Positions 15,678 to 61,970 of a stretch of 64,000 nucleotides of DNA are shown piece after piece; within the stretch, counting starts at the first letter, position 1, and every line of letters begins with the position of its first letter. Below the pieces are notes generated by a model. The model was not told the origin of the DNA. It saw nothing but the letters and a program-made list of their open reading frames with translations, and did not search any database. This DNA is from an uncultured Gammaproteobacteria bacterium (GTDB lineage: Bacteria > Patescibacteriota > Microgenomatia > UBA10105 > UBA927), in NCBI GenBank assembly GCA_964394685.1, contig CAYMYO010000001.1:64040-128039 (forward strand), read 5' to 3'. The position numbers and the translations under genes are program-made.

Positions 15678-17308
<1,631 letters not shown>

Positions 17309-17324
<16 letters not shown>

Positions 17325-18085
17325 TCCTGTCTGTCGCAATCGTAACTTTTAACGAAGAACAGAACATTGATGCTTGCTTATTATCAATCAGCCAACTGGC
17401 TGATGAAATAATCGTCGTTGATGGCGGATCGAGTGATACAACGTGTGAAATAGCAAAGAAATATAACGCAACAATTATCCACACAGATAATCCACAAATA
17501 TTTCATATTAATAAACAGAAGGCACTTGATGCGTGTCATGGGGAGTGGATTTTGCAGCTTGATGCAGATGAGGTGGTGACAGAAGAATTGAAGAAAGAGA
17601 TCCTGAATCCGCCAACTGGCGGACAGGATGACAAACATTATAACGGATACTATATTCCGCGGAAAAATTATTTTTGGGGTCATGTTATGAAGAAGGGCGG
17701 CCAATATCCCGATTATGTCATACGACTTATTCGTAACGGCAAAGCCCATTTCCCCTGTAAAAGTGTTCATGAACAAATTGAAGTTGATGGGACTGTTGGA
17801 TATTTGAAAGAACCAATGCTTCACTATTCATACAGAACAAAAGAAGACTATTGGAAAAAAGCAGATACCTATACGACGCTGAGGGCTCTATCTATGCAGG
17901 AAAATAACATCAAAAAAACGCTTGGTACATGGGTACGTTATAACATTATTCTTCCCATAAAAACTTTTTTTCTTTTATTTATCAGACATAAGGGGTTTAT
18001 TGATGGATGGTATGGACTGGTCTTTGCCTATTGGTCTGCGCTCCACTTCCCAATATCATATAAAAAATATCGTAAAATGCTATGA
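17309..18085 (+). CDS. Glycosyltransferase family 2
   Basis: The N-terminus is GT2-like (LSVAIVTFNEEQNIDACLLSI...VVDGGSSDTT), and the DADE motif appears in ILQLDADEVV. The gene overlaps the 3' end of 15678-17324. Confidence 0.8.
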
Positions 18086-18600
18086 AAAAAATAACTTCGG
18101 TTGTGATTTTATACATAATACTTTATACGTTATACCTTATACTTCCGCTTGCTGTACAAGCGGAATATGTTCTTCCCTATCCATCATCTATGCCGGGGAA
18201 TAAAATATATAAAATAACAAGATTAGTCGATTGGCTTAAGAATTATTGGTATTGGGGAGATATTGCGCAGGCGAAGTACCATCTCATGTTGTCGGATAAA
18301 TATCTTGTTGAAGCGAAAATACTTTTTGAATATAAACAATATTTATTGGGAGACGAAGCGCTTGTACGGTCTTCAAATGAGTGGCAGCAGATACAGCCGC
18401 ATCTCAATTTTGCAAAAAATCATAATAAAGATATTACGAAATTATTTATCCTCTATAAAGAAGCTGCACAGGTTCATGAAATAGTGTTGCGTTCATTTAT
18501 TGTTCCCGAATCAATACTGTGGAATCCTGAGAAAGGAACATCTACAAATTTATATTTAAAAGAAGATATCACGAAAGCGATTGAAATTCGTAAACAATAA
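18082..18600 (+). CDS. Hypothetical secreted protein (signal peptide)
   Basis: The start overlaps the upstream stop in ATGA fashion. The N-terminal hydrophobic stretch ITSVVILYIILYTLYLILPLAVQA has an AQA cleavage-like site. The mature part is hydrophilic and Tyr/Trp-rich. Confidence 0.5.
   Translation: MKKITSVVILYIILYTLYLILPLAVQAEYVLPYPSSMPGNKIYKITRLVDWLKNYWYWGDIAQAKYHLMLSDKYLVEAKILFEYKQYLLGDEALVRSSNEWQQIQPHLNFAKNHNKDITKLFILYKEAAQVHEIVLRSFIVPESILWNPEKGTSTNLYLKEDITKAIEIRKQ
18111..18145 (+). repeat. Heptad array R2: ATACATA ATACTTT ATACGTT ATACCTT ATACTTC (within signal-peptide coding region)
   Basis: Direct reading shows ATAC at a 7-nt period five times. The terminal ATACTTC unit is the same as in R1. 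Confidence 0.8.
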
Positions 18601-19753
18601 TATGAGGAGAATTGCATATCTGTATTACATTTTTATACTCGTATGTATCGTTGTTTTTTCTTATGGGTTTAAAGATCCGAATTTAACGTTAACAACCTCA
18701 CCGTTTCTTATTTCCATCACTCACCAACTCACGTACGTTGTGTATGTACTTCGCCCGTTAGCAACGCTCATTTTTTTAGGTATTCTTTTGAGTCTTTGGA
18801 GTTTTTATGCCATTGTATGTAGGTATGGAGAGAAATTATTTTCTAATTTAAAACATCTTGCGTTTATTATTATCGCATCAGCATTCATTCTTTCATTTTC
18901 TTATCCCGCGTTGACACATGATCTATTTAACTATATGACCACAGCCAAGGTAGCATTCACCCATGGAGAAAATCCATATGTTGTCATGCCGATTGAAATT
19001 CCAAATGAACCTTACCTAGCATTTACCAGGGCAGCTAATAAATATGCATTGTACGGGCCAATATAGATTGCCATAACTGCACTACCACACTACCTTGGTA
19101 ATAATAATATTTGGCAAACAATTATCATGTTTAAGTTATTAAATACATTTTTTTATCTTGTGTTTGTATATATGGTGTATCAGATAACAAAATCCTTGAA
19201 AAATACACTATTTTTCGCATTCAATCCGCTTATTCTTATCGAAACACTCGTTTCAGGTCATAACGATATTGTCATGATGGTATTAGCAGTGGCTGGACTT
19301 TATCTGTTTGAGCAAAAGAAAATATCGGAAAAAATAATTAGCATAATATTGTTATTTGCTAGTGTTTTGATAAAAGGAGCAACAATTGTCCTTTTACCGC
19401 TTCTGTTTGTAAGAAAATTTGACCGTGATCGCTTACTGCTTACTGCTTACTGCTTACTGTCCATCGTCTTTTTCATCGCAGCCCCCATTCGGGAAGAACT
19501 CTATCCTTGGTATGCAGTATGGCTTGTATGTATTGTGTCGTTTCTTCCAATCAAAAAGCATATGTGGCTGTACGGTTTTACAACAGTTCTAACTTTTGCA
19601 TTAGAGCTGCGGCATTTGCCATATATGTGGATGGGGTATTATGAAGGGCCGGGACCAGTACTTCGCACCATACTTACCGTTGTACCAGTTGGTATATATA
19701 TTGTTTATACCGGAATGCAATACCTATCAAAAAGACAAAATGAAAAAATTTAA
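18581..19753 (+). pseudogene. DUF2029/GPI-mannosyltransferase-like polytopic membrane protein interrupted by a single in-frame TAG (19064-19066)
   Basis: ORFs 18581-19066 and 19127-19753 are in the same frame, with 18581 = 19127 mod 3. They are separated only by TAG and read GPI*IAITALPHYLGNNNIWQTIIMFKLL across it. Both halves are hydrophobic, and their combined length of about 390 aa is typical for the family. Confidence 0.55.
19432..19459 (+). repeat. (CTTACTG)x4 perfect heptanucleotide tandem repeat inside CDS (encodes LLLTAYCLL)
   Basis: Direct reading shows four perfect copies. The TACT core relates it to the ATACTNN heptad family. Confidence 0.85.
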
Positions 19754-21218
19754 GACGCTGTTTATATTACTTGGATTATTTTGTATTGCAGTTGCACTCC
19801 GCTGGTATTTGTTGCCAAGTCATCTTTTTTTTGGACCGGAACAGGGAAGAGATTTCCTTGTAGTACGAGATATTGTAGTTAATCACAAATTGACCCTCAT
19901 CGGGTCAAAAACAGACATTTCCGGAATATTCCACGGACCAATATTCTATTATCTTGCAGCAATCCCGTTTGCTGTAACAAAGGGAAATCCTCTTGGTGTA
20001 TCGCTGTTCATGATCATCATTCAGGCCATTGGTGTTTTCTTTATTTATCTTCTTGGTAAAGATATAACAAAAAGTAAGCGGGTAGGACTGATGACAGCTG
20101 GTTTGTATGCAATATCATTTCTTGGAATTGTATATGGACGGTGGTTATCAAATCCACCGCTTTCTATTCCATTTTCAATTATTTTTATATGGAGTTTCGT
20201 TCGTATGTTGCAGGGAGATAGACGGTATCTTTTTCTTACGGCAATATCATTTGCATGTTTAGGTCAGGCAGAATTTATTAACTTTTTACTTTTCGCTGGT
20301 ATTGTATTTGTGCTGATTGTACGATTTTGGAAGAAAGTTTTGGCTATACCCATGTCATACATAGGAATGGCATTGATTGTAGCTTTTGCATTGTCTTTTG
20401 GAAGCTATCTGTTGTTTGATCTGCGTCATGAGTTTTTGATTTCAAAAAGCGTCATGGGGCTTGTAACTGGTACCTCTGGGTATGGGGTTTCATTTCTTGA
20501 GTCAATGAAAAATGCATCACTCATGTTCGTCTCACAGTTTGGAATGATATTTGGAATTCATATGTGGCAAATAGGTGCTATTTGTTTCGCGATCACACTT
20601 TTTGTATTAGGAGTTGAACGGAAACGACATGAATATATTGATTTAGTTATCATTTGGCTGTTAGTACCGATTCTTATCCTTATGGGACTGCGACATAGCG
20701 TACTGGAACAACTGTATGTTGGACTTGTTCCAGGTATGATTCTTGCAATTGCCATCTTTATTGAGTGGTTAATTCGAAAAATATCAATACTTGGGATTGT
20801 CGTGGGATTAAGTGTGATCGCGATGAGTATATACGCATGCGTGAGTTATCTTCCAAGTAATTCCTTCGTGTTTTTCCAAAGCCCGCAACCGAACGTCAGA
20901 TATCGCGACCAACAAAAGGTCGTGACGAGGATTTATCAATTGGCAAACGGCGACAATTTCTATTTTCAGTCATATACAATTCCATATTTTTGGCAGGATG
21001 CATGGACGTATCTATTTTGGTATCAGGGGATAGAAAAGTATGGATATATTCCGAAGGAAGAGGATAAATCCGTAGTCTATGTTATTGTTCAAAAAGATCG
21101 ATCTAATCCAACATTTCAAGCAAATTGGTATGAAAAAACTGTTTCAGCGTGGGGGAAAAGAACAGAAGGGTTTACAATTGGAGAATATACTGTTGAAATA
21201 CGAGAGCGAGAACAGTAA
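19740..21218 (+). CDS. Polytopic membrane protein, GT-C-like (EQ-motif family paralog)
   Basis: It carries FFGPEQGRDFLVVRDIVVNHKLTLIGSKTDISGIFHGPIFYY. The MKKFKTLF start at 19740 overlaps the upstream stop. The C-terminal soluble domain is about 100 aa. Confidence 0.55.
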   Translation: MKKFKTLFILLGLFCIAVALRWYLLPSHLFFGPEQGRDFLVVRDIVVNHKLTLIGSKTDISGIFHGPIFYYLAAIPFAVTKGNPLGVSLFMIIIQAIGVFFIYLLGKDITKSKRVGLMTAGLYAISFLGIVYGRWLSNPPLSIPFSIIFIWSFVRMLQGDRRYLFLTAISFACLGQAEFINFLLFAGIVFVLIVRFWKKVLAIPMSYIGMALIVAFALSFGSYLLFDLRHEFLISKSVMGLVTGTSGYGVSFLESMKNASLMFVSQFGMIFGIHMWQIGAICFAITLFVLGVERKRHEYIDLVIIWLLVPILILMGLRHSVLEQLYVGLVPGMILAIAIFIEWLIRKISILGIVVGLSVIAMSIYACVSYLPSNSFVFFQSPQPNVRYRDQQKVVTRIYQLANGDNFYFQSYTIPYFWQDAWTYLFWYQGIEKYGYIPKEEDKSVVYVIVQKDRSNPTFQANWYEKTVSAWGKRTEGFTIGEYTVEIREREQ

Positions 21219-45106: not shown

Positions 45107-46165
45107 ATGGCTTTAGTCAGCATTATTATCGCAACGTTCAATTCCGCCCGTACTCTTCCTAAAGTGCTAGAGGCAATTAACAAGCAAACATACCCGAAAA
45201 AAAATATCGAAATATTAATTATTGATGGAGGATCTACAGATAGCACTGTATCTATTGCAAAACGATATGATTGTAAAATAATTATGAATCCCAAAGTCGA
45301 GCCTAATTATGCTAAATATTTAGGACTTCAAAATGCAAAAGGGCTATATGTTCTTTATATTGATCATGATGAAGTTTTTACAAATATCGATAGTATCAAA
45401 ACAAGAGTTGATATTTTTAAAAAGCATCACAACGTTAAAGCAATAACAGGAAATGGATATAGTAATCCGCCCGGACTCCACATCATTAATCGTTATATTA
45501 ACGAATTTGGAGATCCTTTTTCTTTCTTTATCTATCGATTATCAAAGAATTCAAATTTTTTCCTACCAACTATGTACAAACGGTTTAAAGTAACATTTGA
45601 TACAGAATTATATTCTATTTTTGATCTTTCCACTTCTTCCGAAATAGCACTTATAGAATTGGGTGCCGGAGGAGGGATGATTGATAGATCATATGTAAAA
45701 AAGAGTTTTGACAACACTGTTACTCAATATCAATTAGTTCCTCATTTGTTACATCTTTTATGTCCTAAATATCCGTTTCTTGGGATTGTTAAAAACGATT
45801 CGTTATATCATTATTCATCTGACAATTTTGGAGGTTACATGCAAAAGATTATTTGGCGAATAAAAAATAATATTTTTCATACCGATACCCTAGGTGCATC
45901 TGGATTTACCGGAAGAGAAGAATTCCAGACGCCAATTTCTCGTTTAAAAAAACTTTTATTTCTTCCCTATGCATTTTCTATTTTATTTCCTTGTATAGAT
46001 GCTGCATATCTCATGGTTACTCGAAAGGATGCATCATATTGCATTCACGTTCCATTGACTGTCATAACCGCAAGTATTATCGTATATTATTATTTTTTGA
46101 AAACATTGGGAATTAAGTCGACAATGATGAGTTACGATGGATCTACAAAAGCATATGAAAAGTAA
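45107..46165 (+). CDS. Glycosyltransferase family 2
   Basis: The sequence VSIIIATFNSARTLPKVLEAINKQTYPKKNIEILIIDGGSTDSTVSIAKRY is GT2-like. It is a paralog of 31342-32328. Confidence 0.8.
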   Translation: MALVSIIIATFNSARTLPKVLEAINKQTYPKKNIEILIIDGGSTDSTVSIAKRYDCKIIMNPKVEPNYAKYLGLQNAKGLYVLYIDHDEVFTNIDSIKTRVDIFKKHHNVKAITGNGYSNPPGLHIINRYINEFGDPFSFFIYRLSKNSNFFLPTMYKRFKVTFDTELYSIFDLSTSSEIALIELGAGGGMIDRSYVKKSFDNTVTQYQLVPHLLHLLCPKYPFLGIVKNDSLYHYSSDNFGGYMQKIIWRIKNNIFHTDTLGASGFTGREEFQTPISRLKKLLFLPYAFSILFPCIDAAYLMVTRKDASYCIHVPLTVITASIIVYYYFLKTLGIKSTMMSYDGSTKAYEK

Positions 46166-48293
46166 TAAAACAATCAATTTTTCTATCTTGATTGCTTTAG
46201 GTATCGCATTAGTATTATTTGTTATACCATTTTTTTGGTTAAAGCCGGGATTTGTTGATATAGGAGGAGATAGCGGAAGGCTATACTTTATCGATCCGCT
46301 TTCATTGGTGCAAAACTTGTTTCAAAGAAGAAATTTTGATGGAGCGACAGCATATGCTATTCTTCCGTACTACATATTCTGCTATTTGATATTACGAGTA
46401 ACAGGCTTTTCAACTCTAACCATTGGAGTGGACAGAGGTATATTGCTATCTCTTGCTTTTGTATCAATATATTTGATAGTTAAACAATTATTGACAGTGA
46501 ACGAAAAAAATAAAATTCGCATTGTACTTGCTGCTATTACCAGCGGAATAGTTTATATAACATTGATAACAAAATTGGGATGGTTAGCTCAACTAGACAC
46601 ACATAATCAGATATTTCTCAATCCGTTGATTTTTTATCTATTATTACGATTTTGTACAACATCAAACCCATTATATGGATTGGGTATCATTATAATTTCT
46701 TTTATATATTCAGTGAACTTTAGTTTTACCGGAATGCCACAGGTTGCATCGTTTTACCCGCTTGCTATACTTTTTCTATTTATTATTCTTCGAATTATCT
46801 ATAAAGTAGCCATACCGTGGAAGAAATTATTTATTTTACTAATAGTACTTATTGGTGTCCATTCGTATCATCTTATACCTATTGCCGCGTCCATTTTTGA
46901 TAAAAGTAGTGTTACACATTCATATATATTTAATGAAGAAACGATTCTAGCTTCCGGTGTAAAATATTTTGAAGCAAACCATAAAGATCTTGGAAAAATA
47001 AGTTTAGAACTATTTCAACCATCAGAATGGTCTAGGAAAACTATATTTATTTTAATAATTCCAATAATTGTTCTACTCGGGTTTTTGAGAAAGCCTTCAC
47101 GATTGTTAGCTATTTTAAGCGTTTTTTTTGCAATTACCTTTTATTTAGTATCCGCAAATATCACTCACATTGGAATTTATATATATAAACACCTTTTTTA
47201 TATTCCCGGGTTTATGATGTTTCGATCGTTTCAGGAGAAATGGTATTACGTCTATTCCTTCTTTTTTGCATTATTATTTGCATGTTCCTTCTATTTATTA
47301 ATAAAACCCTTGAAGCGATTCGTTGCCATCGGTATTACTATTTTTGTTATTTGTCTATCGTTGTATCGGATATATCCATTTCTGCGGGGAGATGCTATTA
47401 AAGCTCCTTTATATCAATCAAATAATGTAACTTCAGTACTAAAGTTAGATCCGGACTTAATTTCAACACTTTCATTTATTAAAACCTTACCTCAAGATGG
47501 CAAAGTAACTATATTTCCTTTGACGTTTCCGTATTTTCAGTTGTTTTATGGTAAAGAGGGTGGTGCATATATGGGAATACCAACAGTATTTCCTATAACC
47601 GGCAGAACTGATTATGCTGGTTTTTGGACGTTTGGTCCATATAAAAAGCAAATCACCGATGCATTTATTAATAGAGATATTGATCGTTTGATTCAATATT
47701 TTTCGCGACTTAACATCCGATATATTTTTTATAACTCAGATGACCGTATTTATACAAACTTTCCGTCTTTTCCCTATGAATATCCCAAAGAAGGGATTCC
47801 ATCAATTAAAGACAAAGCATCGTACGATGCTCTTCTTGAATCCCTTCCTATTCATAAAATTTACGAAAAAGGATTTTATTCCCTGTATGAAATCGATAAA
47901 GACCTCATTCAACCGCTCATATATATCGAGGGTGATGAAACCGGATCATTAACATACAAAAAAATATCACCCGTTATTTATGATATATGGGTTCAAATGA
48001 ATGAGCGAAAAACGCCATTTGTTATTGTATTTTCTGAGCCGTATCAGAAAAGTTGGACAATAGATTTCCAAAACAACAAGGAGATAATAAAAGAGCATAT
48101 CATGATAAATAATTACGCTAACGGATGGGTTATCGATCCCACAAAAGCAAAAAGTTCTGTAATCCAAGGACGTATATATTTAAAGTTTCAAAACTATTTT
48201 TATATTGGAAGTTTGATTTCAGGGGTAGCGTTTATTGTTATTGCTGTTCTTTTTATTTTATATCTAATTAAAAAACGATATGCAAAGACCTAA
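46137..48293 (+). CDS. Giant polytopic membrane protein (GGD-SRLY family), putative GT-C glycosyltransferase
   Basis: The 718-aa protein has N-terminal GFVDIGGDSGRLYFIDPLSL and many TM helices, followed by a C-terminal extracytoplasmic domain and a terminal TM anchor. Paralogs lie at 50210 and 53459. Confidence 0.5.
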   Translation: MDLQKHMKSNKTINFSILIALGIALVLFVIPFFWLKPGFVDIGGDSGRLYFIDPLSLVQNLFQRRNFDGATAYAILPYYIFCYLILRVTGFSTLTIGVDRGILLSLAFVSIYLIVKQLLTVNEKNKIRIVLAAITSGIVYITLITKLGWLAQLDTHNQIFLNPLIFYLLLRFCTTSNPLYGLGIIIISFIYSVNFSFTGMPQVASFYPLAILFLFIILRIIYKVAIPWKKLFILLIVLIGVHSYHLIPIAASIFDKSSVTHSYIFNEETILASGVKYFEANHKDLGKISLELFQPSEWSRKTIFILIIPIIVLLGFLRKPSRLLAILSVFFAITFYLVSANITHIGIYIYKHLFYIPGFMMFRSFQEKWYYVYSFFFALLFACSFYLLIKPLKRFVAIGITIFVICLSLYRIYPFLRGDAIKAPLYQSNNVTSVLKLDPDLISTLSFIKTLPQDGKVTIFPLTFPYFQLFYGKEGGAYMGIPTVFPITGRTDYAGFWTFGPYKKQITDAFINRDIDRLIQYFSRLNIRYIFYNSDDRIYTNFPSFPYEYPKEGIPSIKDKASYDALLESLPIHKIYEKGFYSLYEIDKDLIQPLIYIEGDETGSLTYKKISPVIYDIWVQMNERKTPFVIVFSEPYQKSWTIDFQNNKEIIKEHIMINNYANGWVIDPTKAKSSVIQGRIYLKFQNYFYIGSLISGVAFIVIAVLFILYLIKKRYAKT

Positions 48294-49287: not shown

Positions 49288-50213
49288 AATGTCCGGTTTG
49301 TTTTAGTACTACATGGGAAAATCTTTTTCCATCAAAGGATAGGTTATACTATTTCCCAGGTTTATTTCATACTATTTGTTGCAACAGATGTGGTATATGG
49401 AGTCTTGACCCATTTTTAGACGAACGTGAAGTACGTAAATACTATCCAAAAACGTATTATTCGTACCAAAAAAATACAAAGCCCGGTATTTTTTGGCGCT
49501 TACGCTCCTATATGATAAAAACAAGTATTTCTATGAAACTCGTTCATCGCTGTTTGAGGTCAATTATTAAAATTCCGGCGATCCCTTCATATGTAGAATA
49601 CGGTAAAATTCTTGATATCGGATGTGGTTCAGGTGATACATTATTCCAACTAAAGAATATTGGCTGGGATGTATACGGATTAGATATCGATAAGTCTGCT
49701 ATACAAGTAGCTCGTAAACGGGGATTAAAAAAGGTAACGTTTGGATCATATAAAACAATGGGTTTGTATCAGGATAACTATTTTGATGTTATTCGACTGT
49801 ATCACGTGATAGAACATTTAGATAATCCGGACGCGTTACTTGTACTTGCGTATCAAAAACTCAAAAAGGGAGGAGAATTAATTATCGGCACTCCGAATGC
49901 AAAGAGCTTCGCAGCAAAGATTTTTAAACAATATTGGTATAATCTTGATTGCCCGAGACACCTGTATGTCTTTAATCCTAAACAACTGATATCGCTTCTT
50001 AAAAGAACAGGGTTTACAAATATAAAAATATCGTTTTTTTCTGCAGGAGGGATATTGGGGTCAATTCAGTATTTTTTACATGACACGTTACGAATCAATA
50101 TTGATTTAATAAATCGACCAATGCTGCTATTTCTACTCTATCCTCTTGAGAGGATTTTAGATATATTTGGAATGGGGGATGTATTTGTAATTAGTGCAAA
50201 AAAAAGCATATGA
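49284..50213 (+). CDS. SAM-dependent methyltransferase with N-terminal Cys4 zinc-ribbon
   Basis: The start MKCPVCF at 49284 overlaps the upstream TGA in ATGA fashion. The zinc-ribbon is CPVCF...CCNRCG. The MTase fold is ILDIGCGSGDTLFQL...GLDIDKSAI...LYHVIEHLDNP...LKKGGELIIGTPN. Confidence 0.7.
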   Translation: MKCPVCFSTTWENLFPSKDRLYYFPGLFHTICCNRCGIWSLDPFLDEREVRKYYPKTYYSYQKNTKPGIFWRLRSYMIKTSISMKLVHRCLRSIIKIPAIPSYVEYGKILDIGCGSGDTLFQLKNIGWDVYGLDIDKSAIQVARKRGLKKVTFGSYKTMGLYQDNYFDVIRLYHVIEHLDNPDALLVLAYQKLKKGGELIIGTPNAKSFAAKIFKQYWYNLDCPRHLYVFNPKQLISLLKRTGFTNIKISFFSAGGILGSIQYFLHDTLRINIDLINRPMLLFLLYPLERILDIFGMGDVFVISAKKSI

Positions 50214-52408
50214 AATGGAGACATGCATTACTGCTGTTTGTCCTGACAGCTTTATTTTTATTGCCTCAACTTTTCTGGGGGAAACTGTATATGGTTGGTG
50301 GAGATGACTCCAGGCTCTATTATTTATTCCCAAAACAATATCTGGAAAATTTCTCTTTAAAGGTTATTGCAAATAATACGCTTGGCGGAAATATGGGATA
50401 TTTCCCCGTCAGCTATTCAGCACCAATACTAGCGATAGCGACGGTATTTCAGTATATATTTCCATGGTTAAATATACAGTTTTTTATGTACGGAATAATT
50501 CTCATGTTTGGTTTTTTATTCATGCATCTTCTCTTGCAAGAGCTCATACCAAGTTTTTCAGTCATTGGGTATGTCTCTTCTATCATTGCAGCTTTATATT
50601 ACGTCTTTTCCCCCTTTATCCTTAAAACGTTTATGCAACATCAATTGATAGCTATCTTTATGCTCATGGTGTTGCCTGGATGCTTATATCTTTTTGTGAA
50701 AGGAATGAAAAAAAGAAGCTATAAATATATTCTCTTGTCCTCTTTGTTGTATTCAGTATTTAGCGCAACGTTATTAAGTGCACCTTGGTTTCTTGCAACG
50801 GTATTTATTCTTTTTCCATTACTGCTTTTTATCGTTTTTCAGTATAGAGATTTCTTCTGGAAAGCAAGTATTGTTCTTTTCATATCGTTTTTTTTTCTTA
50901 ATTTTTATTGGATCATTCATCAAGTAATCCCAATTGTATATCCAACAGGAGAGGTGAGTGTGACGTCAACGAATTCGACTCTTCAGGTAAAAGCGGCGAA
51001 TAACTACCTCATTGAAGCATTGACTCATTTGAATAGTCCTGTTTATCAAATGATAGGAACTGTAAGAACGTCGTGGTCTGATCGGGAAGGTCCGACGCTT
51101 GCTCAGTCAATAGGGGTTATTTATCTGTTTGTCATTCTACTGGCTGGAACCAGAATACATTTGGTAAGTAGAAGTCTTTATAAATATTATTGTGTCGGTT
51201 TGTCCGGATTATTATTCGCGATGCTATTTTTTACTCCGAATTTTGGGGAATGGAATTTACGTCTTTTTCAATTCTTAAATAATTATGTACCGTTGTTCGG
51301 AATGTTTCGCAATACGTACGATAAATTCGCTTTAGCAATGTCATTTCATTATTCGTTTGTTCTTTATGTCTCATTATGCGTATTAGAAAGAACGAAAACG
51401 AAAGTACTGTTTAAATATATCGGTCTTGTCATTATTGTTGGCGCCATGTTTTTTACTGCTTACCCGTACCTATTTCCAAAATTTAATGATAAAGAGTATT
51501 CGAATAGAATAACCGGTTCTTTGAATAAAGAGTTTTTTCAGCTAATTGGGTATTTAAAAAGTAATCCCACTTCCTCTCGTTATGTTTGGTTGCCTATGAC
51601 GTACCCTGGATATGTATTTATTAAAGAAGAAGGCGAAGGCAATCATTACTATGCAGGATTATCGCCCTTACAGGTTTTAGCGCAATCTAGCGATATTGCA
51701 GGTTATTATGGAATTCAAACGTCAACAAACCCAGATCTTAATTCTAAAGTTAGGATGCTGCTTCGAATAAAGGATTATGATGCTATCGGGCGAATATTTC
51801 AAAAACAGAATATAGGTTATGTTATCGTAAATAATGAAAAGCTGCCAAAAAAGGCATTAGAATTCTTAGATTCATATCCGTTTATGAGTGATCAGAACGA
51901 CGAATATAAAAATGTTATTTTAGGTGACAAGCTCCAAGATTTTGGTACTCGTTATGTTTTATATCGAATCAATCAAAAATATTATACAAACACGGTTTTT
52001 TTTACAAAAGACATCGGAGACTATCCAATAGCAGATGAAACTATTTCTTATACATACAAAAAAGTACGTTCTGGTTTATATAAAGTGACAATTGTGGGAA
52101 TAACAAAACCCTTAAAGTTAGTTTTAGCGGAGCCATATAACCGTCTTTGGAAACTACAGCTTGCTAATTCCAACAATTTGGTTAAGCTACCAATAGAAAA
52201 TGTTAAAGCTTATGATTTTGGTAACGGCTGGGAAATCGATCCTTATACATTAAAGACCAAATATCCAGAATATGTTATCGGGGAAGCTGATGGTTCAATT
52301 AGCTTAAAACTACACATACAATTTTTACCGGATTTGGTTACAAAACCAGCGCTTATTATAAGCCTTGGTTGTCTTATTTTTATATTAGTTTTATTATTTT
52401 TACCATGA
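50210..52408 (+). CDS. Giant polytopic membrane protein (paralog of 46137-48293)
   Basis: The 732-aa protein has N-terminal LYMVGGDDSRLYYLFPKQYL and the same TM, extracytoplasmic domain and terminal TM architecture as its paralogs. Confidence 0.5.
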   Translation: MKWRHALLLFVLTALFLLPQLFWGKLYMVGGDDSRLYYLFPKQYLENFSLKVIANNTLGGNMGYFPVSYSAPILAIATVFQYIFPWLNIQFFMYGIILMFGFLFMHLLLQELIPSFSVIGYVSSIIAALYYVFSPFILKTFMQHQLIAIFMLMVLPGCLYLFVKGMKKRSYKYILLSSLLYSVFSATLLSAPWFLATVFILFPLLLFIVFQYRDFFWKASIVLFISFFFLNFYWIIHQVIPIVYPTGEVSVTSTNSTLQVKAANNYLIEALTHLNSPVYQMIGTVRTSWSDREGPTLAQSIGVIYLFVILLAGTRIHLVSRSLYKYYCVGLSGLLFAMLFFTPNFGEWNLRLFQFLNNYVPLFGMFRNTYDKFALAMSFHYSFVLYVSLCVLERTKTKVLFKYIGLVIIVGAMFFTAYPYLFPKFNDKEYSNRITGSLNKEFFQLIGYLKSNPTSSRYVWLPMTYPGYVFIKEEGEGNHYYAGLSPLQVLAQSSDIAGYYGIQTSTNPDLNSKVRMLLRIKDYDAIGRIFQKQNIGYVIVNNEKLPKKALEFLDSYPFMSDQNDEYKNVILGDKLQDFGTRYVLYRINQKYYTNTVFFTKDIGDYPIADETISYTYKKVRSGLYKVTIVGITKPLKLVLAEPYNRLWKLQLANSNNLVKLPIENVKAYDFGNGWEIDPYTLKTKYPEYVIGEADGSISLKLHIQFLPDLVTKPALIISLGCLIFILVLLFLP

Positions 52409-53454
52409 TGAAATCTTTGAAGAAAATAGTGACAATAATGGTACTATTTATTTCCAGTATATTGCTTTCTCTGTTTTGGTATCGAGACGTTTATATTACG
52501 GCTATTCAAGAATTACATAAAGAAACACTTACGACTGAATTTACAGAAAAGCCACTTCTAAAAGAAGATACACTTCACTTTGAAATTACGGCAAAACATG
52601 ATAACTTTGGCATTCTAAAATTACGACCAAAAACATTTAATCGATTTAATTACGACATAATTCATTTTCGATTACGTGAAAAGGAAACCGAAACCTGGAG
52701 CGTTAACAACGCATACGTTGTTGACGTATTTAAAGATAAATTATTCTATCCCTTGGGTTTTCCGGTCATTCCAAATTCGAAGGGAAAAACATATGAAATC
52801 GAGATAACTTCTGAAAAAGGGAGCATTATAGATTCAATCGGTTTTTATGGTGGGCATAATTCGATAGCTACGCAATATGTTTATTTAAGGGAAAATATTA
52901 TTTTTAATAACTCATTGCTAACTTCATTTGTAATAGCAAAGAGTATTAGTTTAATGAAAGACCCATATTTTGTTTTGTTCTATTTATTATTCCTGCTACC
53001 CATTTTGTATTTTTTTACAAAAAGCCCTAGAACGAGAAAGCATAGATATTTTATTATTGAAATATGTATTATTTTATATTTGTATTTTGTATATATTTTT
53101 CTTCCCGTGGATTTTGATTCAAACGTTATTATTTATGTTGTTTCTGTTACATTTCTAATTGCTATCAATTATTATTATCCAGTTTTAAAAAATTTATTTG
53201 TGGGACATAAGTTCTATCCAGTTTCAAAAAATTTATTTGTTGGACATAAGTTCTATCCAGTTTCAAAAAATTTATTTGTTGGACATAAGTTCTCTTCATC
53301 ATATGTTTATCTATTCGCAATCATATTATTATTATATCTTTTAATAAATATCGCCTTAAACAGAGTACTTGAATCAACTAGGCTAGCCTTAGCGGTATTC
53401 TATACAATTGTATTAGCCTTGGGTGTTTCCTATGTAGAATTTAAAAATAAATAA
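52405..53454 (+). CDS. Membrane protein with internal 13-aa x3 tandem repeat
   Basis: It has an N-terminal TM segment, a soluble domain, C-terminal TM helices, and the repeat PV(L/S)KNLFVGHKFY x3. The MMKSLKK start at 52405 overlaps the upstream TGA. Confidence 0.5.
   Translation: MMKSLKKIVTIMVLFISSILLSLFWYRDVYITAIQELHKETLTTEFTEKPLLKEDTLHFEITAKHDNFGILKLRPKTFNRFNYDIIHFRLREKETETWSVNNAYVVDVFKDKLFYPLGFPVIPNSKGKTYEIEITSEKGSIIDSIGFYGGHNSIATQYVYLRENIIFNNSLLTSFVIAKSISLMKDPYFVLFYLLFLLPILYFFTKSPRTRKHRYFIIEICIILYLYFVYIFLPVDFDSNVIIYVVSVTFLIAINYYYPVLKNLFVGHKFYPVSKNLFVGHKFYPVSKNLFVGHKFSSSYVYLFAIILLLYLLINIALNRVLESTRLALAVFYTIVLALGVSYVEFKNK
53179..53295 (+). repeat. 39-bp x3 near-perfect coding tandem repeat (CCAGTTTCAAAAAATTTATTTGTTGGACATAAGTTCTAT)
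   Basis: Direct reading shows that copies 2 and 3 differ at 1 nt and copy 1 at 3 nt. The unit is in frame at 13 aa. Confidence 0.85.
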
Positions 53455-53458
53455 GTAT

Positions 53459-55090
53459 ATGAATTGGTATTTATCATCAGGAGATTTAGATTTTTTTTGG
53501 AAAGAACAAATTCAGCATCTCTCGTGGATTCCGAACGTCTTTAGAACAGATGTCGGATTCGGATGGTCAGGTATTATGAGTTTGTGGCTCGATTATCCGT
53601 TCCGTCTCGTTTTGAAACTGCTGTCAGCAATAGGATTATCATGGTTCTTTATCGAAAAACTTTTGTGGATGGCGGTATTTATTATCGCTGCATATTCGTC
53701 TTATTGTTTAGCTAAATATATATTGAAATCACGTCTATCTTCTTGGCTAGCAAGTTTCATCTATATAGCAAATACGTATTTTTTACTTCTGTTTAGCGGG
53801 GGGCAACTCGGGGTCGCGCTTGCGTACGCATTTGCACCGTTTGTGTTATTTCGCTTTATCGAATCTCTCGATACAAAAAAGCCAACAATAAAAAAAGCGA
53901 TTACCAATGGATTATGGTTGACTCTTCTTATTATTTTTGATCTGCGCCTTGCGTATTTGGCGTTTGGAGTAATTTTCCTTTATCAAATAATTTCAAGAAG
54001 GTTTCATATACGCTCAACGAGCATTTCCGTACTTGTGGCGATGGCAGTTCATGCATTTTGGATATTGCCGACTATTATGACGCAGACCGGTCCTTCAGTT
54101 ATGGGAGAGGATTTTACAAATCCCGGTATGCTTCGGTTTTTAAGTTTTGCGGACTTTTCCCATACTATTTCACTTCTTCACCCCAATTGGCCGGAGAATC
54201 TTTTTGGAAAGGTATATTTTTTGCAGCCGGAATTTCTTCTTATTCCGCTCGTAGCATTTTGTTCTCTACTATTTATTACACAAGCAAAAAATAAAAAGCA
54301 CATACTATTTTTGGGACTATTAGTTCTTATCGGAGCGTTTTTTGCAAAAGGAACGCAGCCTCCGTTTGGAGGAATATTTACTTGGTGTTTTCAACATATT
54401 CCCGGGTTTATAATGTTCCGCGATCCAACAAAATTCTACATGTTGACTGCTATTGGATATTCTGTTCTTATTCCATTTACTCTTTCGAAGATAAATAAAT
54501 ATTTTGTATATGCGTTATTTGGGGTATTTTGGCTTATTTTACTTCGAGCAGTTGCTACTGGCGAGGTTAAAGGAAATTTTCAACCAATACAACTTCCGCA
54601 GGAATATGTTCAGTTAAAAGATCAATTAGTTCAAGATACAAAATCATCCCGAACGCTCTGGATACCGAACAAAGAAAATTTCGCATATTATTCCGATATT
54701 CATCCAGTGTTGCAAATGAATCAGTTGTTTAAAGATATGTCACTGTCAGAACTGGCGACTGTCGCAACAAGTTCTGCATTTCTTGAAACGCTAAATAACG
54801 CCGGAGTGAAATATGTGATTGTTCCGATGAATATCGAAGGAAAAATATTCATGCGGGATTACAAATATAATAACGATTTACGAATGTCAATTGTTAATGC
54901 ATTAAAAAGTACTCCATTAAAACAAAACGCTAATTATGTAGATATCGCTGTTTTTGAAAATCCGCAATTTCAGGATATGAAAATTACGGTTCCTGACATA
55001 GTCCAAACGCAACAGTATTATGCAAATGTTGGCGTACTTATCAGTGTTGTTGTTTTTATTGTGATAGTTATTTTTATTGTATGGTTTTGA
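53459..55090 (+). CDS. Large polytopic membrane protein (shorter paralog of 46137/50210 family)
   Basis: The 543-aa protein has the N-terminus MNWYLSSGDLDFFWKEQIQHLSW. Its TM topology and C-terminal soluble domain plus terminal TM anchor match the paralogs. Confidence 0.45.
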   Translation: MNWYLSSGDLDFFWKEQIQHLSWIPNVFRTDVGFGWSGIMSLWLDYPFRLVLKLLSAIGLSWFFIEKLLWMAVFIIAAYSSYCLAKYILKSRLSSWLASFIYIANTYFLLLFSGGQLGVALAYAFAPFVLFRFIESLDTKKPTIKKAITNGLWLTLLIIFDLRLAYLAFGVIFLYQIISRRFHIRSTSISVLVAMAVHAFWILPTIMTQTGPSVMGEDFTNPGMLRFLSFADFSHTISLLHPNWPENLFGKVYFLQPEFLLIPLVAFCSLLFITQAKNKKHILFLGLLVLIGAFFAKGTQPPFGGIFTWCFQHIPGFIMFRDPTKFYMLTAIGYSVLIPFTLSKINKYFVYALFGVFWLILLRAVATGEVKGNFQPIQLPQEYVQLKDQLVQDTKSSRTLWIPNKENFAYYSDIHPVLQMNQLFKDMSLSELATVATSSAFLETLNNAGVKYVIVPMNIEGKIFMRDYKYNNDLRMSIVNALKSTPLKQNANYVDIAVFENPQFQDMKITVPDIVQTQQYYANVGVLISVVVFIVIVIFIVWF

Positions 55091-58784: not shown

Positions 58785-59765
58785 ATGAAATTCTTAATTA
58801 CCGGTGGTGTTGGATATATCGGGTCACTAACAAATGCATTCATTCAATCTCAAGGACACGAGACAGTTGTTTTTGACAGCCTAGTCAATGGTCATCGGGA
58901 ATCTGTTGGAAAAACACCGCTTATTGTTGGAGATTTATGTAATAAAGATGAAATAGATGCAGTGTTTCAGGATGAACGATTTGATGCGGTGATCCACTTT
59001 GCTGCGTTTGCTCTTGCCGGCGAATCCATGGAACGGCCATATGACTATTTAAGAAATAATATCAATGGAACGTTAAATCTTCTGGATTCAATGCATAAAT
59101 ATGATTGCAAAACACTCATATTTTCCTCAACATGTGCAATTTATGGATTCCCAAAATCACTTCCTGTGACCGAAGAGTCACCTATCAGTCCAATGTCTAT
59201 TTATGCTCAGTCCAAACGGTCGTGTGAAGAAATAATAGATTGGTATGAGGAGTTATATGGTATTAAGAACGCAAAACTTCGGTATTTTAATGCTTGTGGA
59301 GACATGCCGGATGGATCTTTGGGTGAAGATCATGCACCGGAAACACACATTATTCCTGTTGCGCTTCAAGCAGCGATTACTGGAAAGCCGTTTTTTGTGT
59401 TTGGAAAAGACTACAAAACATCGGATGGAACATGTATTCGAGATTATATTCACGTACTTGATCTTGCTGATGCGCATTTAAAAGCAGTGTCTTCAATACT
59501 TAAAACTAAAGAATCATTGACAGTTAATTTAGGGGTAGGGAAAGGGTATTCAAATTTGGAAGTACTAAAAGCTGTTGAGAAGGTCACAGGAAAAACGCTT
59601 GATATTCAATATAAAGAGAGACGTGCTGGTGATCCGGATGCCATATATGCAGATAACGCGAAGGCAAAGACAATACTCGGATGGGAACCACAGTATACAA
59701 CCATTGAATCGATCATCGAAACCGCGTGGGCGTGGCACTCAAAGCACCCAAACGGGTATAAATAG
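58785..59765 (+). CDS. galE: UDP-glucose 4-epimerase
   Basis: The sequence KFLITGGVGYIGS is present, and the catalytic YAQSK (Y-x3-K) is in SIYAQSKRS. The C-terminal PDGSLGEDHAPETHIIPV and GTCIRDYIHVLDLADAH blocks are typical of GalE. Confidence 0.85.
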   Translation: MKFLITGGVGYIGSLTNAFIQSQGHETVVFDSLVNGHRESVGKTPLIVGDLCNKDEIDAVFQDERFDAVIHFAAFALAGESMERPYDYLRNNINGTLNLLDSMHKYDCKTLIFSSTCAIYGFPKSLPVTEESPISPMSIYAQSKRSCEEIIDWYEELYGIKNAKLRYFNACGDMPDGSLGEDHAPETHIIPVALQAAITGKPFFVFGKDYKTSDGTCIRDYIHVLDLADAHLKAVSSILKTKESLTVNLGVGKGYSNLEVLKAVEKVTGKTLDIQYKERRAGDPDAIYADNAKAKTILGWEPQYTTIESIIETAWAWHSKHPNGYK

Positions 59766-59800
59766 TATCAAGTATAAAGTATTAAGTATTACGTATAAAA
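59763..59800 (-). repeat. Heptad array R4 (GTAT every 7 nt on + strand; reverse-complement = ATACGTA ATACTTA ATACTTT ATACTTG ATACTAT)
   Basis: Direct reading shows AGTATCAAGTATAAAGTATTAAGTATTACGTATAAA immediately after the galE stop. It is inverted relative to R3. Confidence 0.8.
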
Positions 59801-60749: not shown

Positions 60750-60784
60750 ATACTTTATACTTAATACCTAATACATTATACTCA
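60750..60784 (+). repeat. Heptad array R3: ATACTTT ATACTTA ATACCTA ATACATT ATACTCA, filling the 41-bp divergent gap
   Basis: Direct reading shows ATAC at 60750, 60757, 60764, 60771 and 60778. The minus-strand reading contains a perfect TATAAT. Confidence 0.85.
60750..60784. promoter_or_regulatory. Candidate bidirectional promoter formed by heptad array (-10-like TATACT on +; TATAAT on -)
   Basis: This is the only non-coding sequence between divergent start codons at 60747(-) and 60789(+). The hexamers arise at heptad junctions. This is inference only. Confidence 0.3.
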
Positions 60785-60788
60785 AGCT

Positions 60789-61970
60789 ATGGTTATTGCT
60801 ATTGATGGCTATGAAGCAAATGTTGAAAATCGAGTAGGTATCGGCCGGTATGCGTATGAAATACTAAAGCATATATACAAAATACGATATACAAAATACG
60901 ATATACAAAATACCAATTTCCGTATTTACCTCCCGGAGAAGCCACTGCCGGATATGCCCAAAGAAACAGCGTGGTGGACATACCATATTGTGAAACCAAA
61001 GAAATTATGGACCTTTATTGGATTTCCATTAGCTCTTTTCAGGGATACGCCCAAAGCTGACGTAGTGTTTTCTCCCACGCACTATATTCCTCGGTTTGTC
61101 ACTACTCCTCGTGTTATGTCCATCATGGATTTGTCGTATTTATCGTTTCCAGAGTTATTTAAAGCGAAAGATCTTCACCAATTAGTTCATTGGACACGAT
61201 ATGCAGCTAGTCATGCAAAACTTATCTTCACAATCAGCGAATTTAGTAGAAATGCTATAATTAAGGCATACCGGGTGAACCCGAAACATGTCGTTGTGAC
61301 CTACCCGGGACTGACGGAAAAAGTATCAAGTATCAAGTATCCCCGCCTGCCGGACGGGCAGGAAGTATCAAGTATGGAAATTACAAAAAAATACGCAATT
61401 GCAAAGCATTATATCCTCTCAGTAGGCACAATTCAGCCACGAAAAAATTATGAACGCTTAATTGAAGCATTTGCACTGTTTTTGCAAAAAAACAAGCAGA
61501 AATTTGGAACGATTGACCTCGTGATTGTAGGCAAAAAAGGGTGGCTGTATGATGAAATTCTTCATGCTCCAAAGCGATATGGCGTGGAAAAGCTGGTAAA
61601 ATTCTTGGATTTTGTGCCTGATAATGATTTACCGGCTCTTTACAAGAATGCATTGTGTTTTGCACTTCCCAGCCTCTATGAAGGGTTCGGATTACCGGTT
61701 CTTGAGGCTATGGCACAAGGATGTCCTGTCGTTGTCAGCAATAGCTCTAGTCTTCCTGAGATAGCAGGCGACGCTGGAGTTTATGTAAATCCAGCTAGTG
61801 TTGAAAGTATTGCGAGCGGGCTTTTAACAGCAGTTCGACAAAGAAACCTGATGCAAGGGAAAATTCGTGTAAAAAAAGGACTTGAGCAAGTTTCGAAATT
61901 CTCATGGGATAAAGCAGCGAAAGAGACAATAGATCTTCTCGAACGTGTAGGGAAAGGAACATTGATATGA
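60789..61970 (+). CDS. Glycosyltransferase family 4 (contains two in-frame heptad arrays)
   Basis: The N-terminus [25 protein letters not shown] is GT4-like, and the EX7E block [30 protein letters not shown] is present. Confidence 0.85.
60875..60916 (+). repeat. Heptad array R6: (ATACAAA ATACGAT)x2 ATACAAA ATACCAA, 42 bp in-frame within GT4 (encodes [14 protein letters not shown])
   Basis: Direct reading shows ATAC at a 7-nt period six times. Confidence 0.8.
61323..61378 (+). repeat. Heptad array R5 (GTATCAA GTATCAA GTATCCC | GC-rich hairpin | GTATCAA GTATGGA), 56 bp in-frame within GT4
   Basis: Direct reading shows the 7-nt phase conserved across the GC-rich insert CCCGCCTGCCGGACGGGCAGG. 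That insert has a 6-bp stem CCTGCC/GGCAGG and a 5-nt loop. The array encodes [18 protein letters not shown]. Confidence 0.8.

Follow-up and report, generated by a model that had tools for sequence, protein, structure and literature searches.

The stretch analysed here (the window) comprises 64,000 nucleotides (nt) of contig CAYMYO010000001.1, and the element under study is a tandem repeat of 39 base pairs (bp) within a gene for a membrane protein, referred to below as the host gene and host protein. Three units lie head to tail at positions 53176–53292 and form an array of 117 bp. Each unit of 39 nt equals 13 codons, and the open reading frame (ORF) at 52405–53454 is open throughout the array, which encodes YPVLKNLFVGHKF / YPVSKNLFVGHKF / YPVSKNLFVGHKF as residues 258–296. 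As a small minisatellite or variable-number tandem repeat (VNTR) that is coding and in frame, the array belongs to a known kind of feature. The closest relative of the host protein, P0001, is encoded by a 3.3-kb Logan contig (L001, sample SRR29054603). The host gene and the repeat units are as follows:

52405–53454, forward strand: host membrane-protein gene, 349 amino acids (aa) from the ATG, taken from the ORF listing and the sequence
53176–53214, forward strand: repeat unit 1, TATCCAGTTTTAAAAAATTTATTTGTGGGACATAAGTTC, encoding YPVLKNLFVGHKF; orthologous to unit A of L001
53215–53253, forward strand: repeat unit 2, TATCCAGTTTCAAAAAATTTATTTGTTGGACATAAGTTC, encoding YPVSKNLFVGHKF; site of a 39-bp gap in the L001 alignment
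53254–53292, forward strand: repeat unit 3, same as unit 2, followed by TCTTCATCA (SSS)

The array was reported by Tandem Repeats Finder at 53176–53293 with a period of 39, 3.0 copies, 97% matches, no insertions or deletions (indels) and a score of 222, by far the highest in the window (the runner-up array scores 82). The near-perfect threefold 39-bp repeat described in a first-pass annotation of this DNA was thereby borne out. Its placement at 53179–53295 was one codon off the register of the program, with the description otherwise right. In the latter register, units 2 and 3 are identical at 39 of 39 positions, and unit 1 differs from both at two bases. At unit position 11, unit 1 has T and units 2 and 3 have C (TTA versus TCA, Leu to Ser), and at unit position 27, unit 1 has G and units 2 and 3 have T (GTG versus GTT, synonymous). 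The one to three nt differences between copies counted in the annotation are correct for the register 53179–53295, in which the third unit ends in TCT, not TAT. The 39-mer was found at exactly three sites in the window with up to three mismatches, against an expectation of 0.00 from 100 dinucleotide-preserving shuffles. Beyond the array, the window held no further copy, either as DNA with up to three mismatches or as a peptide in the six frames.

A word-indexed search of 5.8 billion proteins returned six relatives of the host protein. The resulting seven-sequence profile was run against 1.84 billion cluster representatives, clustered at 50% identity, and returned 949 of them at E ≤ 1e-3 and 662 at E ≤ 1e-10. 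The source names of the retrieved members are all blank or “hypothetical protein”, and the family of the host protein is large but lacks annotation. The closest relative was the most informative for the array. Contig L001 is 95.3% identical to the window over its 3.3 kb of DNA, and the sole indel in the host gene is one of 39 bp at the repeat, so that the window carries three copies and L001 two, with the frame intact in both. The comparison of copy number proposed in the first-pass annotation therefore yielded a difference between close relatives. Further loci from genome and metagenome scans (L005–L008) were all repeat-free and resembled P0004, another of the relatives; one was frameshifted, and none represented a close strain. 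Of note, L005 (CAYRFA010000004.1) encodes a homologue of 55% identity on a contig of a metagenome-assembled genome (MAG) labelled “uncultured Gammaproteobacteria bacterium”, the other named relative being from Patescibacteria, and this label may be a binning or labelling error.

It is very unlikely that the three copies are an assembly artefact or that the array works through its DNA or RNA, as an internal promoter for the downstream gene or an RNA structure. Short-read assemblers can miscount tandem units, and no second record of exactly this 349-aa protein was found. Against an artefact, the 117-bp array is shorter than typical reads, and an independent assembly has two units at the same site with substitutions of its own, so the duplication itself is real. 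Against a role at the nucleic acid level, nine promoter-like sites were counted between 52300 and 53700, compared with 8.0 ± 2.7 expected, and no terminator-like site was found in the same interval. The predicted RNA fold of the array was no better than those of shuffled sequences (z = +0.97), and the reading frame is kept in both alleles.

The two alleles also bear on the order of the duplications. Unit A of L001 reads TATCCA GTT TTA ... AGA CAT ACG TTC and unit B reads TCTTCA GTT TCA ... AGA CAT AAG TTC. In both the window and L001, TTA in the first unit contrasts with TCA in every later one, and the first duplication is therefore older than the split of the two genomes. Parsimony favours a gain of the third unit in the window lineage through duplication of the second. 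At unit position 28, all window units carry G and all L001 units carry A, and this shared base implies that the units would have been homogenised within each genome. The absence of differences over 39 nt between units 2 and 3 is weakly informative alone, with approximately 1.8 differences expected if they were as old as the strain split.

Thereafter, the segment comprising the two helices that flank the repeat and their connection was compared across the family. For 54 distant members, its length is 47 aa with few exceptions; it is 51 aa in P0005, and 59–60 aa in P0002–P0004 and P0006, which are 40–59% identical to the host protein. In P0001, with two units, it reaches 72 aa, and in the window protein, with three, 85 aa. 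No repeat was detectable in the relatives of 40–59% identity. An old duplication in these relatives (FVSHLF...FSIYRF) was considered, with 3 of 12 identities by eye, which lies under the threshold of the detector, and it is not claimed here. Among 155 family sequences, a tandem repeat at ≥ 70% identity was found only in the window protein and P0001, and the search for the 13-residue unit elsewhere, as suggested in the first-pass annotation, returned only this closest relative. The expansion is thus lineage-specific and recent because a close relative has two units, distant homologues are repeat-free and the segment is shorter across the family. Recent expansion had likewise been read from the near-identity of the copies in the first-pass annotation, and the identity of units 2 and 3 and the two-unit relative at 95.3% identity are in keeping with that reading.

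The position of the array within the protein was derived from hydropathy, AlphaFold2 and the distribution of lysine and arginine (K+R). Hydropathy revealed six hydrophobic segments (residues 8–26, 187–205, 217–235, approximately 241–257, 300–318 and 327–345), taken as transmembrane helices TM1 to TM6. The regions outside the repeat are as follows:

52426–52482, forward strand: TM1, residues 8–26, a signal-anchor helix after MMKSLKK (Kyte-Doolittle peak of 2.31; AlphaFold2 helix 2–25)
52483–52962, forward strand: extracytoplasmic β-sandwich, residues 27–186, resembling a carbohydrate-binding module (CBM); conserved core of the family
52963–53175, forward strand: TM2 (187–205), basic loop KSPRTRKHRY (206–216), TM3 (217–235), loop DFDSN and TM4 (241–257), from hydropathy, AlphaFold2 and K+R
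53302–53439, forward strand: TM5 (residues 300–318), loop NRVLESTR and TM6 (residues 327–345), from hydropathy and AlphaFold2 helices

The repeat forms the connection between TM4 and TM5, flanked by hydrophobic segments 241–257 and 300–318. The in-frame 13-residue unit in a loop between TM helices, as given in the first-pass annotation, was in agreement with both hydropathy and AlphaFold2. A first AlphaFold2 run with seven sequences (mean predicted local distance difference test score, pLDDT, of 43.8) was superseded by one with an alignment of 61 sequences, which gave a mean pLDDT of 90.2 and a predicted template-modelling score of 0.85. This confident model comprises an N-terminal helix, a β-rich domain at residues ~30–160 and then five helices. 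Residues 266–297 were modelled as coil, with mean pLDDT values of 46–56 for ten-residue blocks over residues 261–290, and the repeat loop is accordingly predicted to be disordered.

K/R-rich loops of membrane proteins face the cytoplasm, according to the positive-inside rule. In the host protein, K+R counts are three in the N-terminal tail, five in the TM2–TM3 loop, six in the repeat loop and two in the C-terminal tail, and zero and two in the other short loops (TM3–TM4 and TM5–TM6, respectively). Mean values over the 54 distant members are 3.06, 3.43, 1.54 and 5.07 for the N-terminal tail, TM2–TM3, TM4–TM5 and the C-terminal tail, and 0.26 and 1.22 for the TM3–TM4 and TM5–TM6 loops. Family-wide, this sums to ~13.1 on the predicted inside compared with ~1.5 in the two short outside loops. 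The bias of the TM4–TM5 loop is independent of the repeat, as the distant members have a turn of ~7 residues there. Because of this K+R distribution and the positive-inside rule, the N terminus and the TM4–TM5 repeat loop are predicted to be cytoplasmic and the CBM-like domain to be outside; a glycan-binding fold would make sense on no other side.

This topology bears directly on the proposal, made in the first-pass annotation, that the repeat varies the length of a surface-exposed loop that might bind metal or carbohydrate, and would thus alter the cell surface in the manner of repeat-bearing adhesins. In its favour, copy number differs between close relatives, and the protein sits in a cluster of genes for cell-envelope glycans. 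We nevertheless consider it very unlikely. The K+R values of both the host protein and the 54 distant members place the TM4–TM5 loop on the N-terminal, cytoplasmic side, and three helices, an odd number, separate it from the outward CBM-like domain. Because 39 is divisible by three, changes in copy number cannot switch the gene on or off. The chemistry of the loop is equally at odds with metal binding, for which no support was found. Its 42 residues include six Lys and three His, with no Asp, Glu, Cys or HxH motif, for a net charge of +6. Each unit contributes two Lys and one His per 13 residues, so that its description as “GH-rich” was overstated. The loop is unlike the His-rich metal-binding loops of ZIP and CDF transporters, in which His is clustered (HxH or His runs), often together with Asp, Glu or Cys. 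Carbohydrate binding by the repeat is implausible for a cytoplasmic coil. The repeat lies outside the CBM-like domain, and it is this N-terminal β-sandwich that is plausibly the glycan-binding part of the protein, judging from the modelled fold.

The tail of the last unit, GHKF-SSS, matches the K-F-x-S-S turn of the family (e.g., YKFDSS and YKLESS), and the end of TM4 was therefore copied along with the turn in the duplications. Between the window and L001 alleles, five nonsynonymous changes and one synonymous change were counted in the repeat. The corresponding ratio of nonsynonymous to synonymous polymorphism (pN/pS) is 1.29, compared with 0.26 for the ectodomain and 0.47 for the remaining membrane part. 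The direction would fit relaxed constraint on the repeat, with counts too small for significance.

These data were further weighed for a functional, tunable cytoplasmic module, in which copy number would tune activity. Each unit would contribute a basic and moderately hydrophobic segment, which could dock a partner such as a family 2 glycosyltransferase (GT2) or a methyltransferase of the cluster, bind the head groups of anionic lipids or undecaprenyl-phosphate, or act as a spacer between TM4 and TM5. Consistent with this, the loop becomes longer step by step in a single clade (47, 51, 59–60, 72 and 85 aa for the whole segment), has a net charge of +6 with no acidic residues, keeps the K-F-x-S-S end after the last unit, and consists of units that appear homogenised within a genome. 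Conversely, the connection spans ~7 residues in most of the 54 distant members, and the family can accordingly function without a long loop. An amphipathic interfacial helix found no strong support, as the helical hydrophobic moment of the loop does not exceed 0.45. The AlphaFold2 model shows a low-confidence coil, the changes between the two alleles are mostly nonsynonymous, and the unit is absent elsewhere in the window and from the 155 family members other than P0001. Such a module is thus unlikely. More doubtful still is a case in which the growth of the loop from ~7 to ~42 residues is adaptive and the basic 13-residue unit serves, in a dosage-tunable manner, for docking or lipid binding. 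The host family, previously undescribed and widespread, would on this view combine a CBM-like ectodomain with a five-helix bundle and work with large polytopic membrane proteins (GT-C-type in some loci) in Patescibacteria-type assembly of envelope glycans. If true, copy number would modulate glycan synthesis from inside the cell.

We consider it probable that the array is a slippage-generated, near-neutral and tolerated polymorphism in loop length, with little functional consequence. The array would be created by replication slippage or unequal recombination between the 39-bp direct repeats. The tight TM4–TM5 turn, which spans ~7 residues and bears K/R, would have grown stepwise in the window lineage, with the segment passing from 47 aa to 51–60, then to 72 (two units) and finally to 85 (three units). 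In the latest step, the second unit would have been duplicated after the window and L001 diverged. Each extra unit adds two Lys, which is compatible with the positive-inside pattern, and the insertion would be tolerated on this account. The lengthened loop would most likely have little or no effect on the job of the protein. Four considerations weigh against this interpretation. The cytoplasmic topology is a prediction derived from sequence rules; homogenisation means that the identity of units 2 and 3 is no clean clock; two alleles are all that is known of the array; and the stepwise growth of the loop across one clade could reflect selection for a longer basic loop.

In-frame coding tandem repeats of the minisatellite type in bacterial genes have reportedly been reviewed by Zhou, Aertsen and Michiels (FEMS Microbiol Rev 2014). 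Like other bacterial VNTRs, the array consists of near-identical head-to-tail units with a length that is a multiple of three, keeps the frame and varies in copy number between relatives. Well-studied coding VNTRs are mostly found in secreted or surface-exposed domains, such as those of adhesins and cell-wall proteins, where length matters. The present array differs from them in that it lies in a predicted cytoplasmic inter-helix loop, has two to three copies only and is without a known phenotype. In the contingency loci of Haemophilus, Neisseria and Campylobacter glycan genes, repeats that are not multiples of three, or that lie in promoters, switch genes on and off. The likeness to these lies in a slippage-prone repeat inside surface-glycan biosynthesis genes. 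Unlike them, the 39-bp array cannot switch expression, given that its unit is a multiple of three and that it lacks promoter-like enrichment.

Scans of the 349-aa protein against Pfam (E up to 5) and NCBIfam gave no matches, and neither did a PDB sequence search with the 61-sequence family profile at E ≤ 1. Within the ectodomain, F88, W98, G118, S125 and G139 are invariant, and Y104, F109 and Y130 are nearly so. The fold of this N-terminal domain is a β-sandwich jelly-roll similar to those of CBM6, CBM35 and CBM36. Sequence identity to modules of these families, including BT0996-C (PDB 7zvo) and an agarase CBM6 (PDB 2cdp), is 7–12%, and membership of a curated CBM family was not detected in Pfam, even at E ≤ 5. 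The host ectodomain further differs from CBM6, CBM35 and CBM36 modules in that it is preceded by an N-terminal helix anchor, followed by a five-helix membrane bundle and not attached to a glycoside hydrolase. Some family members are much longer, such as P0034 (1307 aa) and P0038 (1241 aa), the latter apparently with two copies of the ectodomain. P0115 is fused to a PMT_2 domain, which belongs to glycosyltransferase fold C (GT-C), and P0058 is fused to a TIG domain.

The window as a whole is an envelope-glycan region. It encodes several membrane proteins of the GT-C type (YfhO, PMT_2 and PTPS_related), along with GT2 and GT4 transferases, methyltransferases, sugar epimerases and dehydratases, an aminotransferase, a carbamoyltransferase and a flippase-like protein. 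The host gene is closely packed within its operon, and its ATG overlaps the stop codon of the upstream gene (ATGA). The immediate neighbours are as follows:

50210–52408, forward strand: upstream polytopic membrane protein of 732 aa, without a Pfam family
53459–55090, forward strand: downstream polytopic membrane protein of 543 aa, starting 4 nt past the stop codon of the host gene

The 732-aa protein and the 718-aa product of 46137–48293 are paralogues (24% identity, E = 2e-18), neither with a Pfam match. The former also showed a borderline similarity (E = 0.075; PYNRLWK versus YYRGWK) to the C-terminal region of a YfhO-type protein of the window. Both are probably divergent GT-C-type enzymes. 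Identity between the window (50448–53782) and L001 is mosaic, with 99–100% over 51200–52000 and 93–96% elsewhere in the two genes, and falls to 88% and then 76% within the first 330 nt of the downstream gene. This pattern is suggestive of recombination among related strains in this cluster of glycan genes.

The downstream 543-aa protein matched NF053599 (MmpA) at E = 7e-15 with 54.5 bits, well under the 210-bit cut-off. The order of the genes around the host gene is kept in relatives of 40–54% identity, including one from an NCBI “Patescibacteria group bacterium” MAG. P0044, a member of ~26% identity, is followed by a homologue of the downstream protein (34% identity, E = 2e-99). Downstream of P0058 lie genes for DUF2079 and PMT_2 proteins, not an MmpA-like gene. 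The long members P0034 and P0038 were considered as fusions with an MmpA-like partner, which was rejected (BLASTP E > 0.5). In the few loci examined, family members recur in glycan clusters beside, or fused with, large polytopic membrane proteins, most of them unannotated and some of the GT-C type (PMT_2). Given the outward CBM-like β-sandwich and the neighbouring genes, a probable role for the host protein is to hold or act on a glycan of the cell envelope in concert with the large polytopic membrane proteins encoded next to it, some of which are GT-C-type in related loci.

A comparable arrangement is found in Corynebacterineae, where MmpA (NCgl2761, Rv0226c) is co-transcribed with the upstream LmcA/PgfA (NCgl2760, Rv0227c); for the MmpA family, partial homology to the membrane portion of AftD, a GT-C enzyme, is reported (PMC8698533). 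Lipomannan maturation requires LmcA, which is periplasmic and anchored to the membrane. Its structure is an elongated, CD36-like β-barrel, and its only TM helix is C-terminal (PMC8972800). In both cases, a gene for a membrane-anchored, β-rich ectodomain lies directly upstream of, and tightly linked to, a gene for a polytopic membrane protein in an envelope glycoconjugate locus, the latter being MmpA in Corynebacterineae and a weak match to MmpA in the window. The host protein differs from LmcA in having a jelly-roll sandwich with one plus five TM helices, and no entry for LmcA or MSMEG_0317 was among the top fold matches listed for it. Homology to mycobacterial LmcA was rejected on the grounds of this architecture and of the lack of a PDB sequence match and of a listed fold match. 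The resemblance to the LmcA–MmpA pair is positional only.

The window contains other repeats, among them arrays of the heptanucleotide ATACTTN or its reverse complement. These are found inside a PTPS_related/GT-C-like ORF (16316–16349, perfect, ×4.9), at the start of ORF 18082–18600 (18111–18145), just past an epimerase gene (59762–59789), in a 41-nt gap between divergent genes (60750–60763) and inside a GT4 gene (61320–61375). The sequence (ATACTTT)×2 with up to two mismatches was matched 15 times, compared with 1.95 ± 1.33 in shuffles. A change of ± 1 unit would shorten the ORF at 16316 from 548 to 241/246 aa and that at 61321 from 393 to 223/209 aa. These arrays are candidate phase-variable switches in the glycan genes of a Patescibacteria-like genome, and they fit the class of contingency loci better than the 39-bp array does. 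A perfect GCTTACT array (×4.1) at 19431–19459 lies inside ORF 19127–19753, in which ± 1 unit would turn 208 aa into 174/152 aa. This ORF overlaps ORF 19641–21218 (PMT_2) by 113 nt; a frameshift in the GCTTACT array as the cause of the overlap was rejected, as the second frame opens at 19605, well downstream. A perfect 14-nt repeat, ATATACAAAATACG, is present in 2.9 copies at 60873–60913, ~85 nt past the listed ATG of the GT4 ORF 60789–61970. Its 42 nt preserve the frame, and the array could instead precede the true start codon.

The 39-bp array is a clean case of a young coding minisatellite that would be tolerated in an inter-helix loop, and it matters little as a repeat. It illustrates that a repeat in a membrane-protein loop need not mean surface variation. 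It also marks an insertion-tolerant position in the host protein, which may be usable for tagging. The heptanucleotide arrays and the unannotated protein family are more promising leads. Members of the latter are candidate accessory subunits for handling glycans in the poorly understood process by which Patescibacteria-like bacteria build their envelope.

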